Below, in pieces: positions 8,984 through 49,590 of a stretch of DNA of 64,000 nt. Source of the DNA: Mobula hypostoma (lineage: Eukaryota). The translations under genes and the position numbers were made by a program. Within the stretch, counting starts at the first letter, position 1. Each line of letters opens with the position of its first letter. The notes beneath the pieces were generated by a model. It had not been told where the DNA came from and made no database searches. It saw only the letters and a list, made by a program, of their open reading frames with translations. The stretch is from the NCBI RefSeq assembly GCF_963921235.1, contig NC_086108.1, forward strand, positions 40,860,001 to 40,924,000. The letters run 5' to 3'.

Positions 8984-10115
8984 ATTATTGGTTACTTCGC
9001 TCCCCTTGACAATATAGACTGGGTGGTTTTACCTGCAGAGGAATGGACATTATCCAGGAGAGGGCTCCATAAATGGACTACTCCAATAGCAATGGGCTGT
9101 ATGAGGAACGTGCAATATTAAAGAATATATTACAGTCTTGGGTCTTCACACATATCACTCATGCTTCACTCTCATTGTCATAACATTATTGAGTTACCAT
9201 AATTGTGCCAATGGTTTGCAACTTTGGGCCCTCTCTGTTTTTCTCATTACATTTAGTTCGAATTCTAAGCACACAAAGAGCATGTTCATTAAACTGCATC
9301 GTATGCATCTGCTCAGAACACCATGAGAAACGAATGAGACCTTAAATCCTAATAGCTTTGCAGCTGCTCGTAAAATATCATATGCTCACCAAAAGCACAT
9401 TATTGTTCTTCATAGGAAATCAGTTTTGAAAAACAAAGCAGTGCAATCATTGAAAACTTTCAGCAAATAAATCATTCTGTGATGACAAGGTTGCTAATAT
9501 ATATCATGGAAGGATTTGTGAAGCTTTCTATGCACACTTGCCATACTCACAACAGAATGCTTAGAATACCACGGGCATAAAACTTGAACCTCATAATTAT
9601 AAATGCAAGCAAGAAGCCCAACCAATGAAAGCATAGCTATTAAGATTCAAATTCCTGTTTAACACTGGAAGGCCTTTAAACAGTAGAATCAAGTAGCAAG
9701 AAGGAGCTCGTTCTATCTCACGCAGATCTTCCAAGGATGCATTAGTTACACTTTGCATCGCTTTTCCCAAGACCTTCATGCTTTTTTCTTAATCAATTAT
9801 CCTGCCCTATTTGAAAGTACACTCGGTGACTGGTTTATTAGGTACGTCTGAACTCCTTCTCGATGGTGCAACTATCTAATAAGTCAATCACGTGGCTGCA
9901 GCTCAACACATTAAAGCATGCAGACATGGTGAAGCGGTTCAATTGTTTATCAGACCAAACATCAGAATGGAAAAGAAATATCACCTAAGTGACTCAAACT
10001 GTGGAGTGATTGTTGGTGCCAGATAGGGTGTTTTGAGTGTCTGAGAAAATGGTGACCTCCTAGGGTTTACACACACAACGGCATTGGATACTGTTGAGGG
10101 GGGACAAAGAGGAGA

Positions 10116-10622
10116 GTGGTAGTGATAGGGGACTCGATAGTTAGAGGTGCATATAGGAGGTTCTGTGGGCGTGACAGAGAATCCAGGATGGTTTGTTGCC
10201 TCCCAAGTGCCAGGGTCAAGGATGTCTCTGATCGATTGCATGACATTCTGAAGTGGGAGGGTGACCAGCCAGATGTCGTGGCGCACATCAGTACCAATGA
10301 CATAGCAAGGAAGAGTGAAGAGGTCCTGGACAGTGAGTATAGAGAGCTTGGTAGGAAGTTGAAAAGCAGGATCTCGAGGGTGGTAATCTCAGGATTGCTA
10401 CCTGTGCTAGGTGCCAGTGAGGGTAGGAATAGGATGCTCTGGAGGAGGAACAAGTGGCTGAGGAACTGGTGTAGGGGGCAGGGTTTCAGATTTCAGGATC
10501 ATTGGGACCTCTTCTGGGGCAGGTGGGACCTGTACAAGAGAGACGGGTTACACTTGAACCACAAGGGGACCAATATCCTTTCAGGGAGGTTTGTTAGTGC
10601 TATTGGGGAGGCTTTAAACTAG
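10116..10622 (+). CDS. CR1 ORF1 C-terminal SGNH/GDSL esterase domain (5'-truncated)
   Basis: VVIGDSIVRG (block I), HISTND (block III), RDGLHLN (block V). Stop TAG at 10620-10622. Confidence 0.9.
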   Translation: MVVIGDSIVRGAYRRFCGRDRESRMVCCLPSARVKDVSDRLHDILKWEGDQPDVVAHISTNDIARKSEEVLDSEYRELGRKLKSRISRVVISGLLPVLGASEGRNRMLWRRNKWLRNWCRGQGFRFQDHWDLFWGRWDLYKRDGLHLNHKGTNILSGRFVSAIGEALN

Positions 10623-10624
10623 AT

Positions 10625-13250
10625 TTGCAGGGGGATGGGAACCAGAGTGCCAGAGCTGACAGTGTGGCTGGGGTGAAAATAAATGATGTTGAAAGTTTAA
10701 GCAAATCCGCTGATAGAAAGGTTGTGAGTGGTGGTAAAAATCTTCTGAGGTGTATATCTTTCAATGCTAGGAGTATTGCGGGGAAGGCGGATGAGTTGAG
10801 GGCGTGGATTGACACGTGGAATTATGATGTTGTAGCAATTAGTGAAACTTGGCTACAGGAGGGGCAGGACTGGCAGCTTAATATTCCAGGTTTCCGATGT
10901 TTCAGATGTGATCGAGGCAGAGGAATGAAAGGTGGGGGAGTAGCATTGCTTGTTAGGGAAAATATTACAGCAGTGCTCAGGCAGGACAGATTAGAGGGCT
11001 TGTCTACTGAGTCCTTATGGGTGGAGTTGAGAAACAGGAAAGGTATGGCCACATTAGTGGGATTGTATTACAGACCACCCAATAGTCAACGAGACTTGGA
11101 AGAGCAAATCTGCAGAGAGATAGCAGGCAACTGCAGGAAACATAAAGTTGTGGTGGTAGGGGATTTTAATTTTCCATACATTGATTGGGAATCCCATACT
11201 GTTAGGGGTCTAGATGGTTTAGAGTTTGTAAAATGTGTTCAGGAAAGTTTTCTAAATCAATATATAGAGGGACCAACTAGAGGGGATGCAATATTGGATC
11301 TCCTGTTAGGAAATGAATTAGGGCAAATGACAGAAGTCTGTGTAGGGGAGCACTTTGGTTCCAGTGATCATAACACCATTAGTTTCAATTTGATCATGGA
11401 CAAGGATAGATCTGGTCCTAGGGTTGAGGTTTTGAACTGGAAGAAGGCCAAATTTGAAGAAATGAGAAAGGATCTAAAAAGCGTGGATTGGGACAGGTTG
11501 TTCTCTGGCAAAGGTGTGATTGGTAGGTGGGAAGCCTTCAAAGGGGAAATTTTGAGAGTGCAGAGTTTGTATGTTCCTGTCAGGATTAAAGGCAAATTGA
11601 ATAGGAATAAGGAACCTTGGTTCTCAAGGGATATTGCAACTCTGATAAAGAAGAAGAGGGAGTTGTATGAAATGTATAGGAAACAGGGGGTAAATCAGGT
11701 GCTTGAGGAGTATAAGAAGTGCAAGAAAATACTTAAGAAAGAAATCAGGAGGGCTAAAAGAAGACATGAGGTTGCCTTGGCAGTCAAAGTGAAGGATAAT
11801 CCAAAGAGCTTTTACAAGTATATTAAGAGCAAAAGGATTGTAAGGGATAAATTGGTCCTCTTGAAGATCAGAGTGGTCGGCTTTGTGCTGAACCAAAGGA
11901 AATGGGGGAGATCTTAAATAGGTTTTTTGCGTCTGTATTTACTAAGGAAGCTGGCATGAAATCTATGGAATTGAGGGAATCAAATAGTGAGACCATGGAA
12001 ACTGTACAGATTGAAAAGGAGGAGGTGCTTGCTGTCTTGAGGAAAATTAAAGTGGATAAATCCCCGGGACCTGACAGAGTGTTCCCTCGGACCTTGAAGG
12101 AGACTAGTGTTGAAATTGCGGGGGCCCTGGCAGGAATATTTAAAACATGGACTTCAGTAAGGCCTTTCACAAGGTCCCACATGGGAGGTTAGTTAGGAAA
12201 ATTCAGTCGCTAGGTATACATGGAGAGGTGGTAAATTGGCTTAGACATTGGCTCGATGGAAGAAGCCAGGGAGTGGTGGTAGAGAATTGCTTCTCTGAGT
12301 GGAGGCCTGTGACTAGTGGTGTGCCACAGGGATCAGTGCTGGGTCCATTGTTATTTGTCATCTATATCAATGATCTGGATGATAATGTGGTAAATTGGAT
12401 CAGCAAGTTTGCTGATGATACAAAGATTGGAGGTGTAGTAGACAGTGAGGAAGGTTTTCAGAGCCTGCAGAGGGACTTGGACCAGCTGGAAAAATGGGCT
12501 GAAAAATGGCAGATGGAGTTTAATACTGACAAGTGTGAGGTATTGCACGTTGGAAGGACAAACCAACGTAGAACATATAAGGTTAATGGTAAGGCACTGA
12601 GGAGTGCAGTGGAACAGAGGGATCTGGGAATACAGATACAAAATTCCCTAAAAGTGTCGTCACAGGTAGATAGGGTCATAAAGAGAGCTTTTGGTACATT
12701 GGCTTTTATTAATCGAAGTATTGAGTATAACAGCTGGAATGTTATGATGAGGTTGTATAAGGCATTGGTGAGGCCGAATCTGGAGTATTGTGTTCACTTT
12801 TGGTCACCAAATTACAGGAAGGATATAAATAAGGTTGAAAGAGTACAGAGAAGGTTTACAAGGATGTTGCCGGGACTTGAGAAACTCAGTTACAGAGAAA
12901 GGTTGAATAGGTTAGGACTTTATTCCCTGGAGCGTAGAGGAATGAGGGGAGATTTGATAGAGGTATATAAAATTATGATGGGTATAGATAGAGTGAATGC
13001 AAGCAGGCTTTTTCCACTGGGGCAAGGGGAGAAAAAAACCAGAGGACATGGGTTAAGGGTGAGGGGGGAAAAGTTTAAAGGGAACATTAGCGGGGGCTTC
13101 TTCACACAGAGAGTGTTGGGAGTATGGAATGAGCTGCCAGACGAGGTGGTAAATGCGGGTTCTTTTTTAACATTTAAGAATAAATTGGACAGATACATGG
13201 ATGGGAGGTGTATGGAGGGATATGGTCCGTGTGCAGGTCAGTGGGACTAG
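10625..13250 (+). pseudogene. CR1 ORF2 (APE endonuclease + reverse transcriptase), disrupted
   Basis: Endonuclease motifs NARSI, ISETWL, YYRPP, VGDFN, LDLLL, SSDHN; RT motifs MDFSKAF, SGVPQGSVLGPLLF, KFADDTK; C-terminal TRGH. Frameshift near 11850 and a deletion at about 12146 (IFK joined directly to MDFSKAF). Confidence 0.95.
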
Positions 13251-13574
13251 GCAGAAAATGGTTCGGCACAACCAAGAAGGGCCAAAGGGCCTGTTTCTGT
13301 GCTGTAGTTTCTATGGTTTCTATGGTTTCTATGGTCTCTCGAGTTTACAGAGAATGGTCTGAAAAACAAAAAAACATCCAGTGAGCGTCAGTTCTGAGGG
13401 CAAAAACACCTTGTTACTGAGAGAGGTCAGAGGAAAATGGCTAGACTAGTTCAAGCTGACAGGAAGGTGAGAGCAACTCAAATAACCATGCCTTATAACA
13501 GTTGTGTGCAAAAGAGCATCTCTGAATGCACAACACAGTGAACATTGAAGGGCAGCAGAAGACCACAAGCTCAT

Positions 13575-19320: not shown

Positions 19321-22300
19321 TTAGCGGAAGTTAGAGAAGTCGATGTTCATGCCATCAGGCTGGAGGCTACCTAGACGGAATATAAGGTGTTGTTCCTCCA
19401 ACCTGAGTGTGGCTTCATCTTTACAGTAGAGGAAGCCGTGGATAGACATGTCAGAATGGGAATGGGATGTGGAATTAAAATGTGTGGCCACTGGGAGATC
19501 CTGCTTTCTCTGGCGGACAGAGCGTAGATGTTCAGCAAAGCGGTCTCCCAGTCTGCGTCAGGTCTCGCCAATATATAAAAGGCCACATCGGGAGCACTGG
19601 ACGCAGTATATCACCCCAGTCGACTCACAGGTGAAGTGTTGCCTCACCTGGAAGGACTGTTTGGGGCCCTGAATGGTGGTAAGGGAGGAAGTGTAAGGGC
19701 ATGTGTAGCACTTGTTCCGCTTACACGGATAAGTGCCAGGAGGGAGATCAATGGGGAGGGATGGGAGGGACAAATGGACAAGGGAGTCGCGTAGGGAGCA
19801 ATCCCTGCGGAATGCAGGGGTGGGGGGGGAGGGAAAGATGTGCTTAGTGGTGGGATCCCATTGGAGGTGGCGGAAGTTACGGAGAATAATATGTTGGACC
19901 CGGAGGCTGGTGGGGTGGTAGGTGAGGACCAGGGGAACCCTATTTCTAGTGGGGTGGTGGGAGGATGGAGTGAGAGCAGATGTACGTGAAATGGGGGAGA
20001 TGCGTTTAAGAGCAGAGTTGATAGTGGAGGAAGGGAAGCCCCTTTCTTTAAAAAAGGAAGACATCTCCCTCATCCTAGAATGAAAAGCCTCATCCTGAGA
20101 GCAGATGCGGCGGAGACGGAGGAATTGCGAGAAGGGGATGGCGTTTTTGCAAGAGACGGGGTGAGAAGGGGAATAGTCCAGATAGCTGTGAGAGTCAGTA
20201 GGCTTATAGTAGACATCAGTGGATAAGCTGTCTCCAGAGACAGAGACAGAAAGATCTAGAAAGGGGAGGGAGGTGTCAGAAATGGACCAGGTAAACTTGA
20301 GGGCAGGGTGAAAGTTGGAGGCAAAGTTAATAAAGTCAACGAGTTCTGCATGCGTGCAGGAAGCAGCGCCAATACAGTCGTCGATGTAGCGAAGGAAAAG
20401 TGGGGGACAGATACCAGAATAGGCACGGAACATAGATTGTTCCACAAACTGAACAAAAAGGCAGGCATAGCTAGGACCCATACGGGTGCCCATAGCTACA
20501 CCTTTAGTTTGGAGGAAGTGGGAGGAGCCAAAGGAGAAACTATTAAAAGTAAGGACTAATTCCGCGAGACGGAGCAGAGTGGTGGTAGAGGGGAACTGAT
20601 TAGGTCTGGAATCCAAAAAGAAGCGTAGAGCTTTGAGACCTTCCTGATGGGGGATGGAAGTATATAAGGACTGGACATCCATGGTGAAAATAAAGCGGTG
20701 GGGGCCAGGGAACTTAAAATCATCGAAAAGTTTAAGAGCGTGAGAAATGTCACAAACATAGGTAGGAAGGGATTGAACAAGGGGTGATAAAACTGTGTCG
20801 AGGTATGCAGAAACGAGTTCGGTGGGGCAGGAGCAAGCTGAGACAATAGGTCGGCCAGGACAGGCAGGTTTGTGGATCTTGGGTAGGAGGTAGAAACGGA
20901 AAGTGCGGGGTGTGGGAACTATAAGGTTGGTAGCAGTGGATGGGAGATCCCCTGAGCGGATAAAGTCAGTGATGGTGTGGGAGACAATGGCCTGGTGCTC
21001 CTTAGTGGGGTCACGATCGAGGAGTAAATAAGAGGAGGTATCCGTGAGTTGTCGCTGTGCCTCGGCAAGGTAGAGGTCAGTACGCCAGACTATAACAGCA
21101 CCCCCCTTATCGGCGGGTTTAATAATAAGGTTAGGATTAGTACGGAGGGAGTGGAGAGCAGAGCGTTCCGAAGGAGTGAGGTTGGAATGGGGACAAGGTG
21201 CGGTGAAGTTGAGACGGTTGATGTCCCGTCGGCAATTAGTGATAAAGAGATCCAGAGCAGGCAGAAGACCAGAGCGGGGTGTCCATGAAGAAGAGGAGGG
21301 TTGAAGACGGGAGAAGGGGTCATCGGTGGGGGTGGCAGAGTCCTTGCCGAAGAAGTAGGCTCGGAGACGGAGATGGTGGAAGAAGAGTTCCGCATCATGG
21401 CGAACACGGAACTCGCTGAGGTGTGGGCGAAGGGAGACAAACATGAGGCCCTTACTGAAAACAGAGCGTTCTGCCTCCGACAGTTGAAGGTCAGAGGGGA
21501 TGGTAAAGACCCGGCACGGATGACAGCTGGGATCAGAGGGGGGAGGGGGGAGGCTAGGGGTGTCAGTAGAGAGGGGAGGGTTGGGGTGAGAGGAAGATGG
21601 AGCCTCTGAGGGCCCAGGAGCTGACGGTGGGATCTGAGGAAGACGGGGCTGCGGAGTGGTGGTGGGGGAAGGGGAGACGGGAGTCACAACAGCAGCACTT
21701 GAAGACCCGGCCTGGAGCTCAAGGCTGGAATCTTGAGAGCTGGGATCAGAGGGGGGAGGGGGGAGGCTGGGGGTGTCAGTGGAGAGGGGAGGGTTGGGGT
21801 GAGAGGAAGATGGAGCCTCCGAGGGCCCAGGAGCTGACGGTGGGATCTGAGGGAGACGGGATTGCAGAGTATTGGTGGGGGAAGGGGAGACGGGAGTCAC
21901 AACAGCAGCACATAAAGACCCGGCCTGGAGTTCAAGGCTGGCGTCGCAGTTGGTGATTGCGCAATCGCTGTGAAGGTGTCCATGGTCGTTGCTGGAGTCC
22001 GGGTTTTGAATATGCCCTGAGGTGTTGGAGCCGGCGAGATCAATGGCAGGGGCCGCAATCTGAAGTTCATGCCTGCTAGTTTCAGGGCCAGCAGGCTCTG
22101 GAGTCCGTAAATGTAGGACCTTGCGATCTTTGCCTAACATGACAAAGTCAAAAAAACAGCGATTGCAGGCGTGAATCCGATGGAGGATGAAATAACGGGT
22201 AGGACCATTACAGACGGCGAAAAAAGTGTCCCGAAGGTGTGGAAGGGTCTGGGATAGGGACACCAAGTACCTCCTCATGGCGGAGAGAGTCTCCTTCAGA

Positions 22301-22584
22301 GTTTGACGGGAGAAGCGGCGAGAGGCAGAGTCAATAAAATGTGAGTACCTGGGATCCTCAGAAGGTCCAAATTGAGAGGCTTGGAAACGAATCCTAAAGC
22401 CAACTGGAGTAAGTTGGCGATGGAGGCACGTTCCAAGAAAGGATATATGGCTGTGATAGCGAGTCTGAGTCAAAGTATGGTCGAAAAGTTGAAGAGCCGA
22501 AGAAATTACAGATGGGGAGCAGTGAGAGATGGTTTCACTGAACTCCCGTCGAAGAGAGGATCTAAACTTCTTCGGTGTAGGCAT
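19321..22584 (-). CDS. Penelope-like polyprotein: N-terminal domain, Pro/Ser linker, RT, Cys linker, GIY-YIG endonuclease; one premature TGA at 19558-19560
   Basis: First ATG at 22584 (MPTPKKF). Motifs IKPADKGGAV, FYLLPKIHK, GRPIVS, MDVQSLYTSIP, GVAMGTRMGPSYA, LRYIDD, PFLDL, YYKPTD, CKRNKCYTC, VIYCVQCSRCGLLYIGET. The frame continues past the TGA as RRLGDRFAEHL...LEEQHLIFRLGSLQPDGMNIDFSNFR* (TAA at 19321-19323). Confidence 0.95.
21525..21941 (-). repeat. 213-bp in-frame tandem duplication inside the Penelope ORF
   Basis: Copies at 21525-21728 and 21738-21941 encode two SLELQAGS..AAVVTPVSPSPT...DTPSLPPPPSDPS units. Confidence 0.95.
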
Positions 22585-22718
22585 CACCGGAAGACGCTTC
22601 GCAGTAGTGAATTTAAACGCAAACAACAGGAATTCTGCAGATGCTGGAAATTCAAGCAACACACATCAAAGTTGCTGGTGAACGCAGCAGGCCAGGCAGC
22701 ATCTGTAGGAAGAGGTGC

Positions 22719-34400: not shown

Positions 34401-37400
34401 GCAGCGGACAAAGGAATTGCAACGGTCCTGATGTCCAACAGATTCTGGACAATCCTGCCAACAGAGTTCTACTACGGGATGCCACGGATTTGATTGTGAG
34501 GATGACCTCCACTTTATTGAAGGTATCTGAACCTCCAGCAGACATCTGCAAGACACTTCTGCCTCAGGCACCATTACCACCAAGACTTTACAGGCTCCCT
34601 AAGCTACACAAGGAGAGTTCCCCCTGAGGCCTATCATCAGTAGGATAGATTCCCCAACTTACTGTCTTGCTAAGCATTTAAATGACCATGCTGCCGCCCC
34701 CCAGCTCTTTACTGGGGGCTGTGAGCATCACATCATGAATTTGAACAACTTCGTAAAAACAATAATCACATCCACCTGACCCTGGAGGACATAATGGTCA
34801 GTTTCAACATAGTGTCTCTGTTTATGAGAGATTCTATTAAAGGCAGCTTGGTTCTCGTGTGGTCAAGGTTTGGTAAGGGTACCTTTGACCTCTTTGAGCA
34901 CATCCTTACATCAATATACCTTCTCTATAAGGGAAACTACTATGAACAAACAGATGGAATGGCCATGGGATCACCCTTGTTGCCAGCTATTGCTATTTTC
35001 TACATGGAGGACTTTGAGGAAAGGGCTCAGCGTTCGTCACCCTTACACCCCAAATGTTTTTTCAGATACGTTGATGACATCTATGTAGTGTGGCCTCATG
35101 GACTCCAGGCACTCCAACAGTTTCACAACCATCTGAACAGCATACATCCAACATTCAATTTACAGTAGAGATGGAGAAGAATGGTTGCCTCTCATTCCTC
35201 GACATTCTAATATGATGGAAATCAGACAGTAGCCTCAGACGTTGTGTCTATTGGAAACCCTCTCACATGAACTTTTACAATACCTCAACAATAACAGCCG
35301 CCATCAAGCCTCCCAATGTAGAGTGGTTCTTTCTACTTTGATTAACCATGTGTGAACTATTTTGGACCTGAAGAGTCTCCACAAGGAAATAAGATGATTA
35401 CGCATGATATTCCTATAGAATAGCTACAAGGTGAAGGAAATCAATCAGGCCCTTAAAAGGGACAATGGAAAAACCAGGAAACCTAACAATGAGGAGGAAC
35501 CTGTCACTACCAACTGTCTTGCACAGTTTCTGGAAGATTTGCCAAGATCCTGAAGGAATACTAGATTAATATAATCCACAAGTACGTACATAAGGAAGCT
35601 CAGATCACAGCTTATGTGAGTCAAAGATGACCTGGAATCAGGAGGGCTGGCATTTACAGGATCCTCTGTGAATGCAGAGCAGCATGCATTGGCCAGACAG
35701 GATGCACAGTGGACATCGACATCAAAGAGCACAGGAGGTATATCCGTTTGGGTTATGCAGAGAAATTGGCAGTGGCAGAACATTTCATTCACAATGGCCA
35801 TAAGATTGACTTTGACAGTACAAAACTACTGTGCCATACCAATGGCTTTTTGGGACTGCTTAGTGAAGGAAGCCATTGAAATAAAACTAGAGGAAACAAA
35901 TTTTAACAAAGATGAAGGTCTCACTCTAAGTAAGAACTGGAATTCAATTGTAAACAAGGTGGGACAGTGGAAACCTGATTGGATGAGGACTAACCAGTCA
36001 GGAGGGTGTATAAATTCCACTGGACTAGACATGCCCAGGAATAACTCCTCATGAAGATGGCAGAGTTTGTCATGGAAATGTTGATTAAAATTGATATTTG
36101 TACTTGGCTGGAAGCCTGAGAAGAGTTTATTCATCATTTATGCTGGAAAAGCACCAGATCCTTTTTTCATATTAAGACTACCAAAGGTTTCCTTTACCTT
36201 AAGCTCTTTAAACAATTCCGGTTCATTGAACAACACCCAATCTTGAATAATTGATTCCCTAGTGAGCTCATTGATGAGCTGCTCTGAAAAGCAATCTCCC
36301 AGGCATTCTACAAATTCCCCCTCTTGGGATCCAGAACCAACTTGATTTTTCCAATCTACCTGCATATTGAAATCTCTTATAACTGTTGTAACATTGCCCT
36401 TCTGATATGCATTTTCTATCTTCCATTGTAATTTGTCAACCACATCTTTACTACTACTTGGAGCTCTGTATATAACTCCCATCAAGGTATTTTCACTCTT
36501 GCAGTTTCGTAGCTCTACCCACAACAATTCTACACTTTCAGATCCTATGCCACTGATTTCTAATGATTTTAATCTCATCCCCCTGTTAAATTAGTTTAAA
36601 CTCTCCCAAACAGCTCTAGCACACCTGCCTGAAAGGATATTGGACCCCCTCGGGTTCAAGCGTAACCAGTACTTTTTGTACCGGTCTTACATTCCCTACA
36701 AAAGATCCCAATGATCTAGAACTCTGAAGCCGCCCCCCCCCCCCGCACCAGATCGTCAGCCATGCATTCATCTATCAAATCAGCCTATTTTTACCCTCAC
36801 TGGCATGTGCCACAGGCAACAATCCAAAGATTGCTATCCTGGATGTCCTGCTTTTCAGCTTTTTAGCTATTTTCCTAAAATCTCTCTTCAGGACCTCCTC
36901 ACCTTTCCTACCTTTGTATGTCATTGATGCCAATATGTAGCAAGATTTCTGACTGCTTCCCAGCCCCTTTAGAATGCCGTGGACACTGTTCGAGACATTC
37001 TTGACAATGGCACCCGTGAGGCAACATAACATCTGGGTGTCTCTATGGCATCCACAGAATCACAACTCTATTCTTCAAACTGTGGAATCTCCTGCCACTA
37101 CTCCTGCTCCCCTCTTCTATGCTGAGCCACAGTGCCAGAGATCTGATCACTGCGGCTCCGCCCCCCCCCCCCCCCCGGTAGGTTGTCCCTCTCAACTATA
37201 TCCAAAGTGGCATACTAATTATTGAGGGAATGGCCACAAAGGTACTCAACACTGGCAGCCCCTTCCCTTTCCTTCCCCTAACAGTCACCCAGTTACCTGC
37301 TTCCTGCAAACTAGTAGTGACTACCTCCCTATAGCTCCTGTCTATCACCTCCTCAGTCTGCTGTATGAGCCGAAGGTGATCGAGCTGCAGCTCCAGTTTC

Positions 37401-38144: not shown

Positions 38145-39884
38145 TAGAGGAGAAAACTAAAGAGTGTGACCATTCAGCCCCACGAGTCTGCTCTGCCATT
38201 CCATCATGGCTGATCCCAGATCCCACTCAACTCCATAGACCTGCCTTCTTGCCATATCCTTTGATGCCCTGACTGATCAGGAAACTGTCAACTTCCGCCT
38301 TAAATATACCCATGGACTTGGCCTCCACTGCAGTCTGCAGCAGAGCCTTCCACAGATTTGCTACTCTCTGGCTAAAAAAAATTCCTCCTTAAATCTGTTC
38401 TAACACATTGCTCCTCAATTTTGAGGCTGTGCCTTCTTGTTCTGGGGACCCCCCACCACAGGAAACATCCTCTCCACATCCACCCTATCCAGTCCTTTCA
38501 ATATTCAGTAGGTTTCAATGAGATCCCCCACATTCTTCTAAATTCCAGTGATTAGATTCAAAGATTCAAGAATCAAAAAACTTTATTGTCATTCTAACCG
38601 TACATCAGCTCTGCAGGGCAGAATGAGACAGCGTTTCTCAGGAGCGGTGCAATCATAACATACTAAGTGCAACACTAAATAATAAGCATAACAATAAATA
38701 GTAAAAACACAACAGCACATGTCAGTTAAAATCAAGTTATAAGTGTCCAGTGCAAGTTAAAAGTGTCCAAAGCAGAGTCAGGTGGTGCGGCTATTTAGCA
38801 GTCTGACTGCCTGTGGGAGGAAGCTGTTTAGTAGCCTTGTGGTTTTAGTTTTGATGCTCCTGTAACGCTTGCCTGATGGCAGAAGAACAAACAGTTCATG
38901 GAGAGAGTGTGAGGGGTCTTTAATGATGTACCGTGTCTTCTGGAGGCATCGACTCTGAAAGAGGTCTTGGACAGAAGGTAGGGAGACCCCAATAACCTTC
39001 TCTGCTCCCCTAACCACCCTCTGCAAGGCTGTTTTGTCGACAGCACTGCAGCTGGAGTACCAGGTTGTGATGCAAAAGGTCAGCACATTTTCAATCACGC
39101 CTCTGTAGAAGGTAGTTAAGATGTTAGTGGGGAGTGATGCTTGTTTAAGCTTCCTCAGAAAGTACAATCTCTGCTGGGTCTGTTTCACAATCCCAGTGGT
39201 GTTCCTGGACCAGGTGAGATTGTCCGAGATCTGCACCCCAAGGAACTTGATGTTTTCCACTCTCTCCACTGTGGAGCCGCTGATGCTGAGGGGTGTGTGC
39301 TCAGGCTGAGACCGTCTGAAATCGACGATCATCTCCTTGGTTTTGGTGCAAACCAAGGCCCAAAGCAGCAAATGCTCCTCATATGTTAACCCCTTCATTC
39401 CCGGAATCATCCTCATGAACTTTCTCGGGATGCTCTCCAATGACAACACATCCTTTCTGAGATATGTGGCCCAAAACTGTTGACAATACTCCAACTGTGG
39501 CCTAACTAGTGTCTTAAAAAGGCTCAACGTTATCTTGTTTTTATATTCTATTCCCATTGAAATGAATGCCAACATTGTATTTGCCTTCTTTACCACAGAC
39601 TCAACCTGTAAATTAACCTTCTTGCAAGAGGACTCCGAAGTCCCTCTGCACCGCTGATGTTTGAACCTTCTCCCATTTAGATAATGGTCCACACTATTGT
39701 TCCTTTAACCAAAATGCATTATCACACATTTCCCAACACAGTATTCCACCTGCCACTTTTTTGCCTATTCCTCCAACTTGGCTAAATTCTGCTGCAATCA
39801 CATTACTTCCTCAGCACCACCTACCCCTCCACCTACGTTTGTATCATCTGCAAACTTTGCCACAAAGCCATCAATTCTATTATC
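38145..39884 (-). mobile_element. CR1 LINE 3' part, interrupted by a Rex1-type LINE
   Basis: KVNLQVESVVKKANTMLAFI...LVRPQLEYCQQFW...MKGLTYEEHL at 39355-39700 resumes at 38150-38550 (LEFRRMWGDLIE). Confidence 0.88.
38553..39352 (-). mobile_element. Rex1/Babar-type LINE 3' fragment (post-RT region)
   Basis: KTKEMIVDFRR...KFLGVQISDNLTW...QQRLYFLRKL...DPSHSLHELF.LLPSGKRYRSI...NSFLPQAVRLLN; 3' end caataaag...(TTGAATC)n-like tail. Confidence 0.92.
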
Positions 39885-45484: not shown

Positions 45485-46900
45485 AGTCATACAGTCATAG
45501 AAAAGTACAGCAGAGAAACAGGCCCTTCAGCCCATCTAGTCCATGTTGGACCATTTAATCTGCTTGCTCCCATCAACCTGCACTGGGATCATAGCCCTCC
45601 ATACCTCTACCATTTAGGTATCTATCCAAACTTCTCTTAAATGTTAAAATCAAGCTCACATGCACCACTTGTGCTAGCAACAGAATCCACACTCTCACAA
45701 CGCTCTGAGTAAAGAAGAATCCCCTCCTGTTCCCCTTACACATTTCACCTTTCACCTTTAAGACACAACCTCTGGTTGTAGTCCCACCGAACCTCTGTGG
45801 AAAAAGCCTGCTTGCATTTACCCTACCTATACCATTCATAATTCTGCATTCCTCTATCAAATCTCCTCAATCTTCTATGTTCCAAGGAATGAAGTCTGAA
45901 CCTATTCAATCATTCCTTATAAATCAGCTCCTCCAGACCTGGCAAAATCCTTGTAAATTTTCTCTGTACTCTTTCAACCTTAGTTGCATATTTCCTGTAG
46001 GTCGGTGATTAAAACTGCACATCCACTGTAAGTCTGCACCATCCAGGCCTATTCCACTAATGAAGTGCCAATCAATGTTAGGAGAGCTGAACTCACCCAT
46101 GACAACAACCCTATTATTTTTGTACCTTTCCAAAATCAGTTTACTTATCAGCTCAGTGTCCCCATGGCTATTGGTTAAGTTGGGGGGATTGGGTCTCTGG
46201 AATACTATTAATAGAGCGATTGTTCCCTTCCTGTTTCTGACTTCCACCTCAGTAGAAAATCCCTTTTTTCAATTGTGATAGTATCACTGATTACCAATGC
46301 CACGATGTCTTTTCCCCTTTACTCCCTCCCTATCACTTTTGAAACATCTAAATCAGCCAGTCCTGCCCTAATGACAGCCAAGTCTCTGCAATAACCTTTC
46401 CCATGCACTGATCCATGCTCGATGTTCATCACCCTTGTTCTTAATACTTACATTCATGTAAACACATTTCAACCCATTCAACTAACTGCTTTCATACCCT
46501 ATGCACTGCCAATCCATCCTCTACATTCTCTCTACACACCACATCTACCAACTTCTCCTTTCATCTAAGTCTCTGTTTTCCATCCCACTGCCAACCTAAT
46601 TTGAACCCTTCCCAAACAACTCTAGTAAACCTGCCTGCAAGGACATTAGTCACTCTTGAGTTCAGGTGTACCTTATCACTTTTGTACGGATCATACCTTT
46701 CCCAAAAGCAATTCCAATAATCCACCAATCTGAAATCCTGCCCCTGCACTCTCACTTTGGTCATGTGTTTGACTGCCATATAATCTCTTTCCTACCCTCG
46801 CTGGAATGTGGCACAGGCAAAAATCTAGAGATTACTACCCTTGAGGTCCTTCTTTTTCACTTCCTTTCTAACTCCCTATATTCACTCTTCAGGACTTCAT
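45485..46900 (-). mobile_element. Old CR1 LINE with large internal deletions (ORF1 esterase, endonuclease, 3' end)
   Basis: WNCFWERYDPYKSDKVHLN, EVRNRKG, VVVMGEFSSPNIDW, NASRLFPQ...TTRGC.LKV. Confidence 0.8.
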
Positions 46901-47789: not shown

Positions 47790-49590
47790 TAAGACCATAA
47801 GAATTAGGCCATTTGGCCAATCGGGTCTGTTCCACTACTCAATCATGGCCGATCCTTTTCACGCCTCTTCAGCCCCACTCTCCGGCCTTCTCCCTGTAAC
47901 CTTTGATGCTGTGGCCAGTCAAGAACATATCAATCTCTGTCTTAAATACACCCAACAAACCTGGCTTCTACAGCTGTCTTTGGTATGAAATTCCAAAAAT
48001 TCACCAAGAAATTTCTCCCCATCTCTGTTTTAAATGGACGCTCCTCTATCCTGAGGCTGGGCCCACTTGTCCTGGACTCTCACACCATGGGAAACATCCT
48101 TTCCATATCTACTCTGCTTAGGCCTTTCAACATTTGAAAGGTTTCAATGAGATCCCCCATCATCCTTGTAAATTCCAGTGAGTACAGTCCCAGAGCCATC
48201 AAATGTTCCTCATATGCACCTTTAGGTCTTTCAGCTTTTTGAGCTCCTCTCTGTTGTAGTAGTAATTGCACTCACTTCTCTTTCCTCACACCCTTCAACA
48301 CCTTGCACAGTGCTAGCGTCTTCCACAGTGAAGAATAATGCAAAATACTCATTTACTTCATCTTCCATCTGTCTTATCGCCCATTATTATTTCTCTGGCC
48401 TCATTTTCTAGCGGTCCTATATCCACTCTCATTTCTCTTTTATTTTTTATATACTTGAAAAAGTATTTTTTATCCACCTTGATATTGCTTGCTAACTTGC
48501 TTTCATATTTCACCTTTTTCAATTTACTTTGGCCAACTCCTCTCGCATACTACTGTAATTTCCTTTACTCCACTGAAATACTGCCACGTTGGACTTTACA
48601 TTGTCCCTATCAAATTTCAAGTTGAACTCAATCATATTGAGATCACTGCCTCCTAAGGGTCCTTTACCTTAAGTTCCCTAATTGCCTCTGGTTCATGACC
48701 TAACACCCATCCAGTATAACTGATCGCCTAGTAGGCACAACAACAAACTGCTGTAAAAAGCCATCTTGTAGCCACTCCACAAATTCACTCTCTTGTGATC
48801 CATTACCAACCTGATTTTCCAAATCTACCTGCATGTTAAAATCCCCTATGACTATCATAACATTGCCCTTTTGACGCACCTTTTCTATTTCCCATTGCAT
48901 TCTGTAGTCCTCATCCAAGCTACTGTTTGGGGGCCTGTATATGACAGCCAACAAGGTCCTTTTACCCTTGCAGTTTCTTAACTCAACCCACAAGGATTCA
49001 ACATCTTTTGATCTTATGTCACATCCTTTTGATAGTTTGATTCCATTCTTTACCAGCAGAGCCATGCTACCCCCTCTGCATACTTTCCTATTCCTCCAAT
49101 ACAACGTGTAACCTTGGACATTCAACTCCCAGCTACAACCATCCTTCAACCACGATTCAGTGTTGGCCACAACATCATACCTGACAATCAGTAAAAGTGC
49201 AACAAGATCATCCACCTTATTTCTTCTACTCTGTGCATTGAGATATAACACTCTGAGTATTGTATTTGCTACCCTTTTTGATTCTGCATCCCTAGTGCAC
49301 TGATACTCACCCTGCTGGCTGCAATTTTGTCCTATTATCTGCCTGCCCTTCCTGACAGTCTGACTGCACACTATCTTTGCTTTTTTACTATTCATTCTTC
49401 CTGAGTCCCTTCACTCCAGTTCCTATCCACCTGCCAAATTAGTTTAAACCCTCCCCAACAGCTCTAACAAACCTGCCCGTGAGAATATTGATTCCCCCTT
49501 GGGTTCAGGTACAACCCGTCCCTTTTGTACAGGTTTTATGCCCACTCCGACCCCGAGAAGAGATCCCAATGATCCAAGTACCTGAAGCCA
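47790..49590 (-). mobile_element. CR1 LINE with deletions (ORF1 end, APE endonuclease, 3' end)
   Basis: YLNAQSRRNKVDDL...TESWLKD...YRPPNS...IGDFNM; GLYSLEFTRMMGDLIE; junction gggtttaaactaa at 49439-49451. Confidence 0.88.

Follow-up and report, generated by a model that had tools for sequence, protein, structure and literature searches.

CR1 is an abundant LINE of sharks, reptiles and birds, and the question of how ORF2 is translated in two-ORF LINEs has, to our knowledge, an answer in just two cases, L1 and SART1, each of which uses reinitiation. Coronaviruses use the slippery heptamer U_UUA_AAC, and it is with this signal that the present work is concerned.

In the sections of the sources cited here, CR1 is described as the dominant transposon of chicken (PMC2734521) and as present in all amniote lineages (PMC4316615). 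Among the closest described elements are the CR1s of subgroup 7, whose type IVB ORF1 joins a zinc finger/leucine zipper to an esterase (Metcalfe and Casane, 2014, PMC4120745); neither "frameshift" nor "overlap" occurs in the available text of that paper. The legend of Figure 1 in PMC5911963 states that a -1 frameshift is needed for ORF2 of the Dictyostelium elements TRE5-A and TRE3-A. Excerpts on recoding describe U_UUA_AAC as a standard eukaryotic -1 site (PMC5009743) and describe, in arterivirus nsp2, a -1/-2 frameshift with a C-rich motif to which nsp1beta and PCBP bind (PMC7939443, PMC5009743). No report of a CR1 frameshift was found in the literature searched, a search that the classic CR1 papers lie outside. 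Here we analyze a 64,000-nucleotide stretch of the Mobula hypostoma genome (the window), in which an earlier note, made from the sequence alone, had proposed that CR1 ORF1 and ORF2 are joined by such a shift.

Results

The CR1 copy in the window

The window element, on the forward strand, combines an esterase ORF1, an ORF2 coding for an APE endonuclease and a reverse transcriptase, and a CR1-type 3' end, features that fit an esterase-type CR1. The 3' part of ORF1 (10107-10622; open frame 10098-10622) encodes an SGNH/GDSL esterase domain (PF13472, E 8e-11), ends in GEALN-stop and is 72% identical to residues 141-311 of the protein P0019. This copy has neither the 5' UTR nor the initial ~140 codons of ORF1; relatives at 60-72% identity carry CxxC motifs at the ORF1 N-terminus, the same region that is missing from the truncated window copy. 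ORF2 opens in the -1 frame relative to ORF1 (10598-11917) with a linker and the APE endonuclease (~10754-11371; PF03372, E 1e-17, and PF14529), breaks near 11851-11866, and beyond a deletion of ~100 codons at 12141-12147 continues as reverse transcriptase (12144-13250; PF00078). At the 3' end (13262-13334) a predicted hairpin (-17.1 kcal/mol, z -1.8) is followed by three TTTCTATGG repeats, resembling the hairpin and short terminal repeat, an octamer in amniotes, that an excerpted account gives for the CR1 3' UTR (PMC4316615), except that the unit here is 9 nt, not 8. A quick esterase tree groups the window ORF1 with turtle, squamate, frog and bird ORF1s (SH-aLRT 97), apart from L2-like esterases. 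Because it is 5'-truncated and its ORF2 is broken, defects that the earlier note had not pointed out, the window copy cannot be active: it is a dead insertion recording the signal of its family, and the frameshift claim therefore concerns the CR1 family and not the copy at 10107-13334.

The junction itself is as the earlier note had read it. The heptamer T_TTA_AAC lies at 10613-10619 (+) in the X_XXY_YYZ register of ORF1 and adjoins the ORF1 stop TAG at 10620-10622 (+), which is TAG or TAA in relatives. The -1 frame reads F-K-L-D-L-Q-G-D-G-N-Q and is that of ORF2, carrying the endonuclease. The ORF-track start at 10625 is TTG, and the first in-frame ATG, at 10925, is codon 104 from the heptamer, past the endonuclease motifs NARS (10763-10774, codon 50) and SETW (codon 76).

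TTTAAACTAR occurs three times on both strands of the 64 kb, and all three copies, 47-56% alike in the esterase, stand at CR1 esterase ORF1 ends; any canonical heptamer precedes only 31 of the window's 6686 stop triplets (0.46%). On the reverse strand, copy B (49439-49448) belongs to another CR1 subfamily and its decayed esterase ORF1 closes with T_TTA_AAC TAA, the -1 frame starting F-K-L-I-W-Q, and copy C (36591-36600) has T_TTA_AAC TAA with a G-run at +11 in a decayed, internally deleted CR1. Copy D, also on the reverse strand (46596-46605), reads T_TCA_AAT TAG at its junction, a heptamer that has decayed by one base from a canonical form; this decay, together with an insertion of 1 nt immediately before it, rules the copy out as an in-frame fused subfamily.

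Conservation of the heptamer

Conservation was examined in DNA of relatives, retrieved with motifs that lie well away from the junction, with L005, which ends before the junction, left out and duplicate loci of one contig counted once. A canonical heptamer was found at the stop or one codon before it in 10 of 13 CR1-like junctions (all but copy D, L113 and L012) versus 0 of 14 other esterase loci; L131 and the bacterial SGNH loci, which are outside the 14 controls, also have no heptamer directly before the stop. The forms present were T_TTA_AAC, G_GGA_AAC and T_TTT_TTA. The junction is T_TTA_AAC TAG in the DNA of L001 and in 16 of 17 copies of the G001 family, T_TTA_AAC in L036, L139 and L141, G_GGA_AAC TAG in L002 (930 codons open in -1) and T_TTT_TTA-GTG-TAA in L031 (996 codons open in -1), so that the heptamer is kept in divergent families. 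Its XXX block switches between T and G in DNA, and to A as judged from protein ends; the form A_AAA_AAC was not seen as DNA among the junctions examined. In genome contigs, the scan with an RT alignment returned 79 loci of 500 relatives, and that with the esterase alignment nothing. Viral contigs scanned with the esterase and with alignments A1, A3, A4 and P0139 gave nothing related, and two junction-pattern matches there, being without esterase or endonuclease, were taken as chance.

At the protein level, the longer ORF1 homologues end in L-N-stop in 31 of 36 cases and I-N-stop in one, the named L-N ends coming from rays, skate, sharks, sturgeon, frog, turtles, lizards, snake and swallow; chance codon use would give T_TTA_AAC in ~1% of L-N ends. 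More distant relatives end in Gly-Asn or Lys-Asn, and the residue before changes as X_XXA_AAC requires. Tails were counted in 100 of 150 cluster representatives, the 50 lacking a full C-terminal tail having been dropped, and comprised 43 LN, 10 GN, 3 KN and 9 internal KN; the other 35 include an L2-like clade and broken copies, together with CRG, CSG and LGRV ends inside the GN clade. The preceding residue is compatible with X_XXA in 42/43 LN, 10/10 GN and 12/12 terminal or internal KN tails, and a residue without a T-ending codon precedes LN in 1/43 and GN in 9/10, counts that come from related, not independent, sequences. Single-class tests of codon compatibility were weak (p 0.02, 0.11 and 0.07). 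In a quick tree, GN/KN and GN/LN switches, and a change from Q to F before LN, occur among close relatives. F-K-L is also read at the junction by four proteins, one of them from turtle, that derive from gene models or shifted copies.

These patterns indicate that the heptamer is conserved beyond coding need. A rival account is that only the proteins are conserved, an x-L-N C-terminus of ORF1p and an F-K-L-x-x-Q-G N-terminus of ORF2p fixing the bases through their overlap. Conservation of the initial -1-frame residues counts for this account, as does the fact that L-N in frame 0 with F-K-L in frame -1 would force T_TTA_AAY. We nevertheless consider it very improbable, as the residue changes (LN to GN or KN, F-K-L to G-K-L) always keep a slippery heptamer, and the G-run stands in a different codon phase in L002 and L141. 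The distance from the catalytic DGxH to the LN/GN/KN end varies from 24 to 39 residues, so this end is not a fixed place of the esterase fold. The account would, moreover, still need -1 translation through the heptamer, where there is no start codon.

Reading frame and start codons of ORF2

ORF2 is open in the -1 frame without a start of its own in the window copy, L001 and the G001 family, and open in -1 with AUGs in L002 and L031. The -1 register is kept in 9 of the 16 G001 copies with an endonuclease match, the rest carrying private indels. Those refuting conditions of the earlier note that this analysis could address did not go against a frameshift. The -1 register is not universal: ORF2 is in +1 in L036 and in the decayed L141 and copy B. 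L036 is otherwise intact (ORF1 of 418 codons, ORF2 of 937), and its alignment with two -1-type sister families has a non-triplet gap, which MAFFT did not place at the G-run; a one-base loss is the likely but unproven cause of its register. A -2 shift is ruled out for L036 and L141, as it lands on TAA.

The start codons bear on a different explanation, in which ribosomes start anew close to the ORF1 stop, by termination-reinitiation or without an AUG, and make a separate ORF2p, the conserved block being a reinitiation signal. The stop is adjacent and conserved, and an in-frame AUG precedes the endonuclease in four of eight linkers (copy B, L002, L031 and L141), which could thus initiate normally. 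In excerpted accounts, ORF2 translation of L1 and SART1 depends on ORF1 translation (PMC2881922, PMC10275272), and initiation in L1 is AUG-independent (PMC5009743). The other four linkers, however, have no AUG before NARS, and no AUG or near-cognate start occupies a shared position, either upstream of the endonuclease, where the earlier note had thought a conserved AUG would count against a frameshift, or among the first -1-frame codons near the ORF1 stop. A TURBS-like UGGGA is not found at a conserved upstream distance, and reinitiation gives no reason for the XXX block to switch from TTT to GGG with AAAC constant. Reinitiation, or AUG-independent initiation as in L1, is an unlikely explanation, if the strongest of the rivals to a frameshift.

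The downstream G-run

A conserved AGGGGG box at 10629-10634 (+), starting 10-11 nt past the heptamer, is a candidate unstructured stimulator. Among nine XXXAAAC junctions, GGGG starts at +11 in six, at +9 in one and at +13 in one, and is broken in one; such a run within +9 to +13 in 8/9 junctions compares with a background frequency of 0.5-5% per 9-nt window. The run is an invariant block in three sister families, and its length ranges from G4 to G11 among G001 copies. Its conservation at +11 fits the earlier guess of a G-rich stimulator that is not a pseudoknot. Folding of the window copy gave no stable downstream structure (z +0.9 to +1.6), single-strand z-scores of the junctions were near or above zero, and no stimulator structure or consensus pairs came from local folding, consensus folding of five junctions or Rfam. 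No G-quadruplex was predicted for the window copy, and a search in five elements for a long-range partner of the G-box gave no shared position. L031 is the only junction that folds well (z -2.1/-2.7).

The sequence around the G-run also invites the idea of a splice acceptor (CAG|G with branch-like sequence upstream) through which splicing would connect ORF2 to an AUG further 5', and CAG does precede the run in 6/10 junctions. This seems far-fetched, given a pyrimidine fraction of only 0.35-0.65 in the upstream 20 nt, the lack of an AG in L141 and a heptamer register that splicing leaves unexplained. Among the rows listed for DNA or putative RNA contigs there is no joint or loose end at 10630, although contigs cannot show absence.

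The contigs, from runs X1, X2 and X15, show neither expression nor absence of splicing. Among the 40 of 73 variants listed, none falls in 10613-10621, and positions 10611, 10612, 10622, 10624 and 10626 vary; G>A at 10622, in about 14-30% of contig depth, turns TAG into TAA and keeps the stop. The raw reads of run X21 did not contain the element (2 reads). In a further account, the fusion arises by polymerase slippage or G/T-run indels, in RNA or DNA, and not by slippage of the ribosome. The variable G-run of the G001 copies, the one-base offset of L036 and L141, and two ray gene models (P0034 and P0039) that read ORF1 into ORF2 in frame could all be taken that way. Yet no run within the heptamer exceeds 3 bases, the variants listed include no indel of at least 5% at the junction, and what is conserved is an XXXYYYZ pattern and not a long run, making this origin, too, highly doubtful.

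Discussion

We infer, with a probability of roughly 80%, that a programmed -1 frameshift in esterase-type CR1s yields an ORF1-ORF2 fusion, in keeping with the gag-pol-like product proposed in the earlier note. Most ribosomes would stop at the end of ORF1 and release ORF1p, and some would slip back one base at the heptamer to make an esterase-endonuclease-reverse transcriptase fusion, with the predicted junction peptide E-A-L-N-L-D-L-Q-G-D-G-N-Q. Slow decoding at the adjacent stop may act as the pause, and the G-run could be an unstructured stimulator, either bound by a protein or contacting the mRNA entry channel of the ribosome.

A broader view is more speculative, and we put it forward as possible rather than probable: CR1s of jawed vertebrates and other animals may make reverse transcriptase only as a Gag-Pol-like fusion, using a new kind of stimulator (adjacent stop plus a G-box at +11 that lacks structure) recognized by the ribosome, by ORF1p as feedback or by some protein that binds G-rich RNA. 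Other esterase LINEs may fuse by stop-codon readthrough, such that esterase-type LINEs, in contrast to L1, would generally depend on recoding to join ORF1 to ORF2. In one other esterase LINE group, frame 0 is open after TAG in 7/7 loci.

If the frameshift is real, CR1 produces its enzyme fused to ORF1p and in a set ratio, annotations that begin ORF2 at an internal AUG lose the endonuclease, and assays of CR1 mobility have to include the native junction. The frameshift would also add a deeply conserved frameshift site of nuclear genomes with an apparently unstructured stimulator.

Among known systems, CR1 subgroup 7, as excerpted, shares the esterase ORF1, the APE-RT ORF2 and the vertebrate hosts, and the heptamer-bearing group reaches beyond it to more distant esterase LINEs. 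TRE5-A and TRE3-A are likewise two-ORF APE-type non-LTR retrotransposons; they belong to another clade and have an unrelated ORF1, and the passage describing them gives no slippery site or experiment, whereas CR1 has a defined heptamer-stop-G-run signal conserved in vertebrate and other animal CR1s. With retroviral gag-pol and coronavirus 1a/1b, CR1 shares an in-register heptamer that links a structural ORF1 to an enzymatic ORF2 lacking a start codon. It differs in being a non-LTR retrotransposon, in having its stop adjoin the heptamer, and in that secondary-structure folding, which covered stem-loops, found none about 5-9 nt downstream except in L031. The arterivirus site offers a tentative analogy, of position only, in a short unstructured motif 11 nt past the shift site in place of RNA structure; the CR1 motif is G-rich, and in CR1 a shift of -2 would run into a stop. 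L1 and SART1, in the excerpts available, resemble CR1 in having a bicistronic LINE RNA with ORF2 dependent on ORF1 translation; their ORF2p is a protein of its own, obtained through coupling or reinitiation, whereas the CR1 product would be a fusion.

The junction in the window

The window is animal DNA with many decayed LINEs, among them a CR1 copy that is nearest, of the named sequences, to proteins from ray, skate and shark (59-68% identity). Sequence and domain matches place an SGNH esterase ending ...GEALN* in frame 0 at 10098-10622 (+) and, in the -1 frame at 10598-11917 (+), a reading of F-K-L-D-L-Q-G-D-G-N-Q into an APE endonuclease; the junction itself reads T TTA AAC TAG (10613-10622). 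All the junction details in the earlier note were borne out, namely a heptamer in register, an adjoining ORF1 stop and ORF2 in the -1 frame, as was its placing of the first in-frame ATG about 100 codons in, past the endonuclease motifs (with codons numbered from the heptamer: NARS 50, SETW 76, the ATG 104). On such a junction most ribosomes would terminate at TAG, releasing ORF1p, and some would slip -1 on the heptamer, giving an ORF1-ORF2 fusion with the junction ...A-L-N-L-D-L-Q-G....

The window copy is a dead element: some 140 codons of ORF1 are missing, and ORF2 loses its frame near 11851-11866 and about 100 codons at 12141-12147. As in CR1 elements, its 3' end consists of a predicted hairpin followed by three TTTCTATGG repeats. 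Its flanks (10020-10075 and 13335-13560) may be the halves of one Tc1/mariner-like DNA transposon fragment, with the CR1 copy inserted between.

The window has three instances of TTTAAACTAR (10613+, 49448-, 36600-), all of them where a CR1 esterase ends; the other copies are 47-56% identical to the one at 10613 over the longer esterase matches. In a fourth copy (about 46600-) the sequence is T_TCA_AAT TAG. Any canonical heptamer precedes 31 of the window's 6686 stop triplets, and with the codon use of the window element an x-L-N end would be spelt T_TTA_AAC by chance about 1% of the time.

Junctions of related elements

Loci were fetched with mid-esterase peptide motifs, with reverse transcriptase motifs, and with esterase profiles, which take in the ORF1 end, run on the contaminated assemblies behind them. 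About 700 stretches with CR1/L2-type reverse transcriptases in genomes of prokaryote species (L030-L108) are contaminating eukaryotic host DNA; the assembly G001 held 17 copies of one CR1-like family. Junction DNA was available for 13 CR1-like cases (four in the window, loci L001, L002, L012, L031, L036, L113, L139 and L141, and the G001 family), nine of which have XXXAAAC immediately before TAG or TAA (eight T_TTA_AAC; G_GGA_AAC in L002). L031 has T_TTT_TTA one codon ahead of TAA, and three have no heptamer at the stop: the fourth window copy, L012, and the decayed L113, with a heptamer 34 nt before it. In 14 further esterase loci (L003, L004, L006, L007, L137, L138, L147, L151, L152, L153, L155, L158, L171 and L177) no heptamer directly preceded the stop.

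The -1 frame is open from heptamer to endonuclease in the window copy, L001, L002 (930 codons), L031 (996 codons) and the G001 family, which retains T_TTA_AAC in 16 of 17 copies and the -1 register in 9 of the 16 with an endonuclease match. The contrary cases are L036, L141 and a second window copy (49439..49448, -), where ORF2 takes the +1 frame; the last two are decayed. L036 (G003:C2) is otherwise intact (ORF1 418, ORF2 937 codons) and contains 8 runs of 6 or more. A gap of non-triplet length and unsettled position sets it apart from its sister families, and its register likely reflects a one-base loss or an assembly error. For frame readout, L139 ends too early and the window copy at 36591..36600 (-) is deleted at that part. 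Of the eight linkers that could be read, four lack an AUG ahead of the first endonuclease motif; the others have AUGs at 6-9, 16, 52 and 62-79 codons, and hence share no AUG position.

Contigs from three public runs were aligned over 10430-10830. Among the variants listed (40 of 73), none fell in 10613-10621 while both flanks carried some, and TAG was changed to TAA at 10622; in these contigs the similarity of another subfamily starts exactly at 10613.

ORF1 protein ends

L-N ends 31 of 36 longer ORF1 homologues and I-N one, and three others run on into F-K-L, the -1 frame; named hosts of L-N ends were rays, skate, sharks, sturgeon, a frog, turtles, lizards, a snake and a swallow. Full C-terminal tails were present in 100 of 150 cluster representatives (LN 43, GN 10, KN 3, KN plus a short extension 9, neither 35). 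TTA, GGA and AAA, each followed by AAC, are exactly the X_XXA_AAC codon pairs for Leu-, Gly- and Lys-Asn, so that the preceding residue must own a codon ending in T, G or A, respectively. It does in 42 of 43 LN, 10 of 10 GN and 12 of 12 KN ends, these rows being related sequences and single classes weak alone (p 0.02-0.11); Gln, which has no T-ending codon, precedes nine of ten GN ends and no LN end. A quick esterase tree intermixes GN and KN ends in one branch (SH-aLRT 99) and places an F-L-N end among Q-G-N ends, and from these sequences the heptamer type evidently switched more than once. The ORF1 end lies 24-39 residues past the catalytic DGxH motif, a variable distance, and is thus not a fixed place of the fold.

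This switch of XXX, block-wise and in register, bears on the other explanations. Reinitiation at ORF2 would leave it unexplained and seems unlikely; so would a constraint on the protein only, which we consider very improbable, and splicing or polymerase slippage, each slightly more improbable still. We assign a probability of roughly 0.8 to -1 frameshifting on the strength of the observed anatomy and conservation, from which we infer the slip, together with its rate and the parts played by stop and G-box. Judged by sequence, the CR1 ORF1/ORF2 junction carries a real, deeply conserved recoding-type signal.

Other esterase LINEs end ORF1 differently. In a separate group with a TAG stop (L151, L152, L153, L155, L158, L171 and L177, from G017 and G018), frame 0 is open past the stop in all seven loci and reaches the endonuclease in six, and most show, some 6 nt past the stop, a small stem of the GGCA..TGCC type, an arrangement that looks like stop-codon readthrough. 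L2-like and other esterase ORF1s (L003:3987, L004:1894, L007:1642, L138 and L012) have TGA followed by CT (CTG, CTC, CTA, CTG, CTT) with frame 0 continuing, which we take to resemble the UGA-CUR readthrough context. The L2-like esterase element L006:2049 has its ORF2 in frame 0, where an AUG follows TAG by two codons; this is the ordinary reinitiation layout and could serve as a control.

Candidate stimulator

Folding of the RNA after the heptamer had been proposed as a check in the earlier note, which saw no clear pseudoknot; the absence of a stable structure stands for local, pseudoknot-free folds, with downstream folds no better than shuffles in the window copy and eight of nine other junctions. 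No consensus pairs were found across five junctions, and no Rfam match at the junction. Among the nine XXXAAAC junctions, six have GGGG starting at +11, one at +9 and one at +13 (background 0.5-5%), and G-run, heptamer and stop form an invariant block in three sister families. Although the G-run also codes for a conserved Gly, it sits in a different codon phase in L002 and L141, an indication that the signal is one of nucleotides. The G-box may be a stimulator acting as linear RNA. L031, the only T_TTT_TTA junction, has, instead of the G-run, a stable stem-loop (z -2.1 to -2.7) that begins some 11 nt past the heptamer, which suggests that the two may substitute for one another.

Other features of the window

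A 1035-codon open frame at 19558-22665 (-), in a strongly skewed region, has a weak reverse transcriptase match (PF00078, E 2.7e-5, below the curated cut-off) and is probably a young LINE of another clade. An ALKBH8_N match (PF09004, E 2.6e-18) lies at 38778-39704 (-); this domain is known at the C-terminus of some LINE ORF2s.

Comparison with known systems

A full-text literature search found no paper on frameshifting in CR1, and 'CR1' is absent from 300,000 of the 449,034 characters of a recoding review (PMC5009743). Kajikawa 1997, Kapitonov and Jurka 2003, Haas 1997 and 2001 and the Repbase notes lie outside that search and may contain an earlier mention of the overlap or the slippery site, which leaves the novelty provisional. 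Other papers drawn on were (PMC2881922, PMC13405545, PMC5006619, PMC3905857, PMC4120745, PMC10275272, PMC2734521, PMC8665684, PMC4255032, PMC4316615). The CR1 junction would represent a known mechanism in a family for which we found no report of it, in an unusual, unstructured context. The Dictyostelium elements TRE5-A and TRE3-A are said to need a -1 frameshift (PMC5911963). According to the review, 3' stimulators that begin 12-15 nt from the shift site, a minority, act as linear RNA with trans-acting factors (Atkins 2016, PMC5009743). The arterivirus motif is 11 nt away from its shift site (PMC5009743 and PMC7939443), the same position class as the CR1 GGGG, mostly at +11, but is C-rich where the CR1 motif is G-rich.
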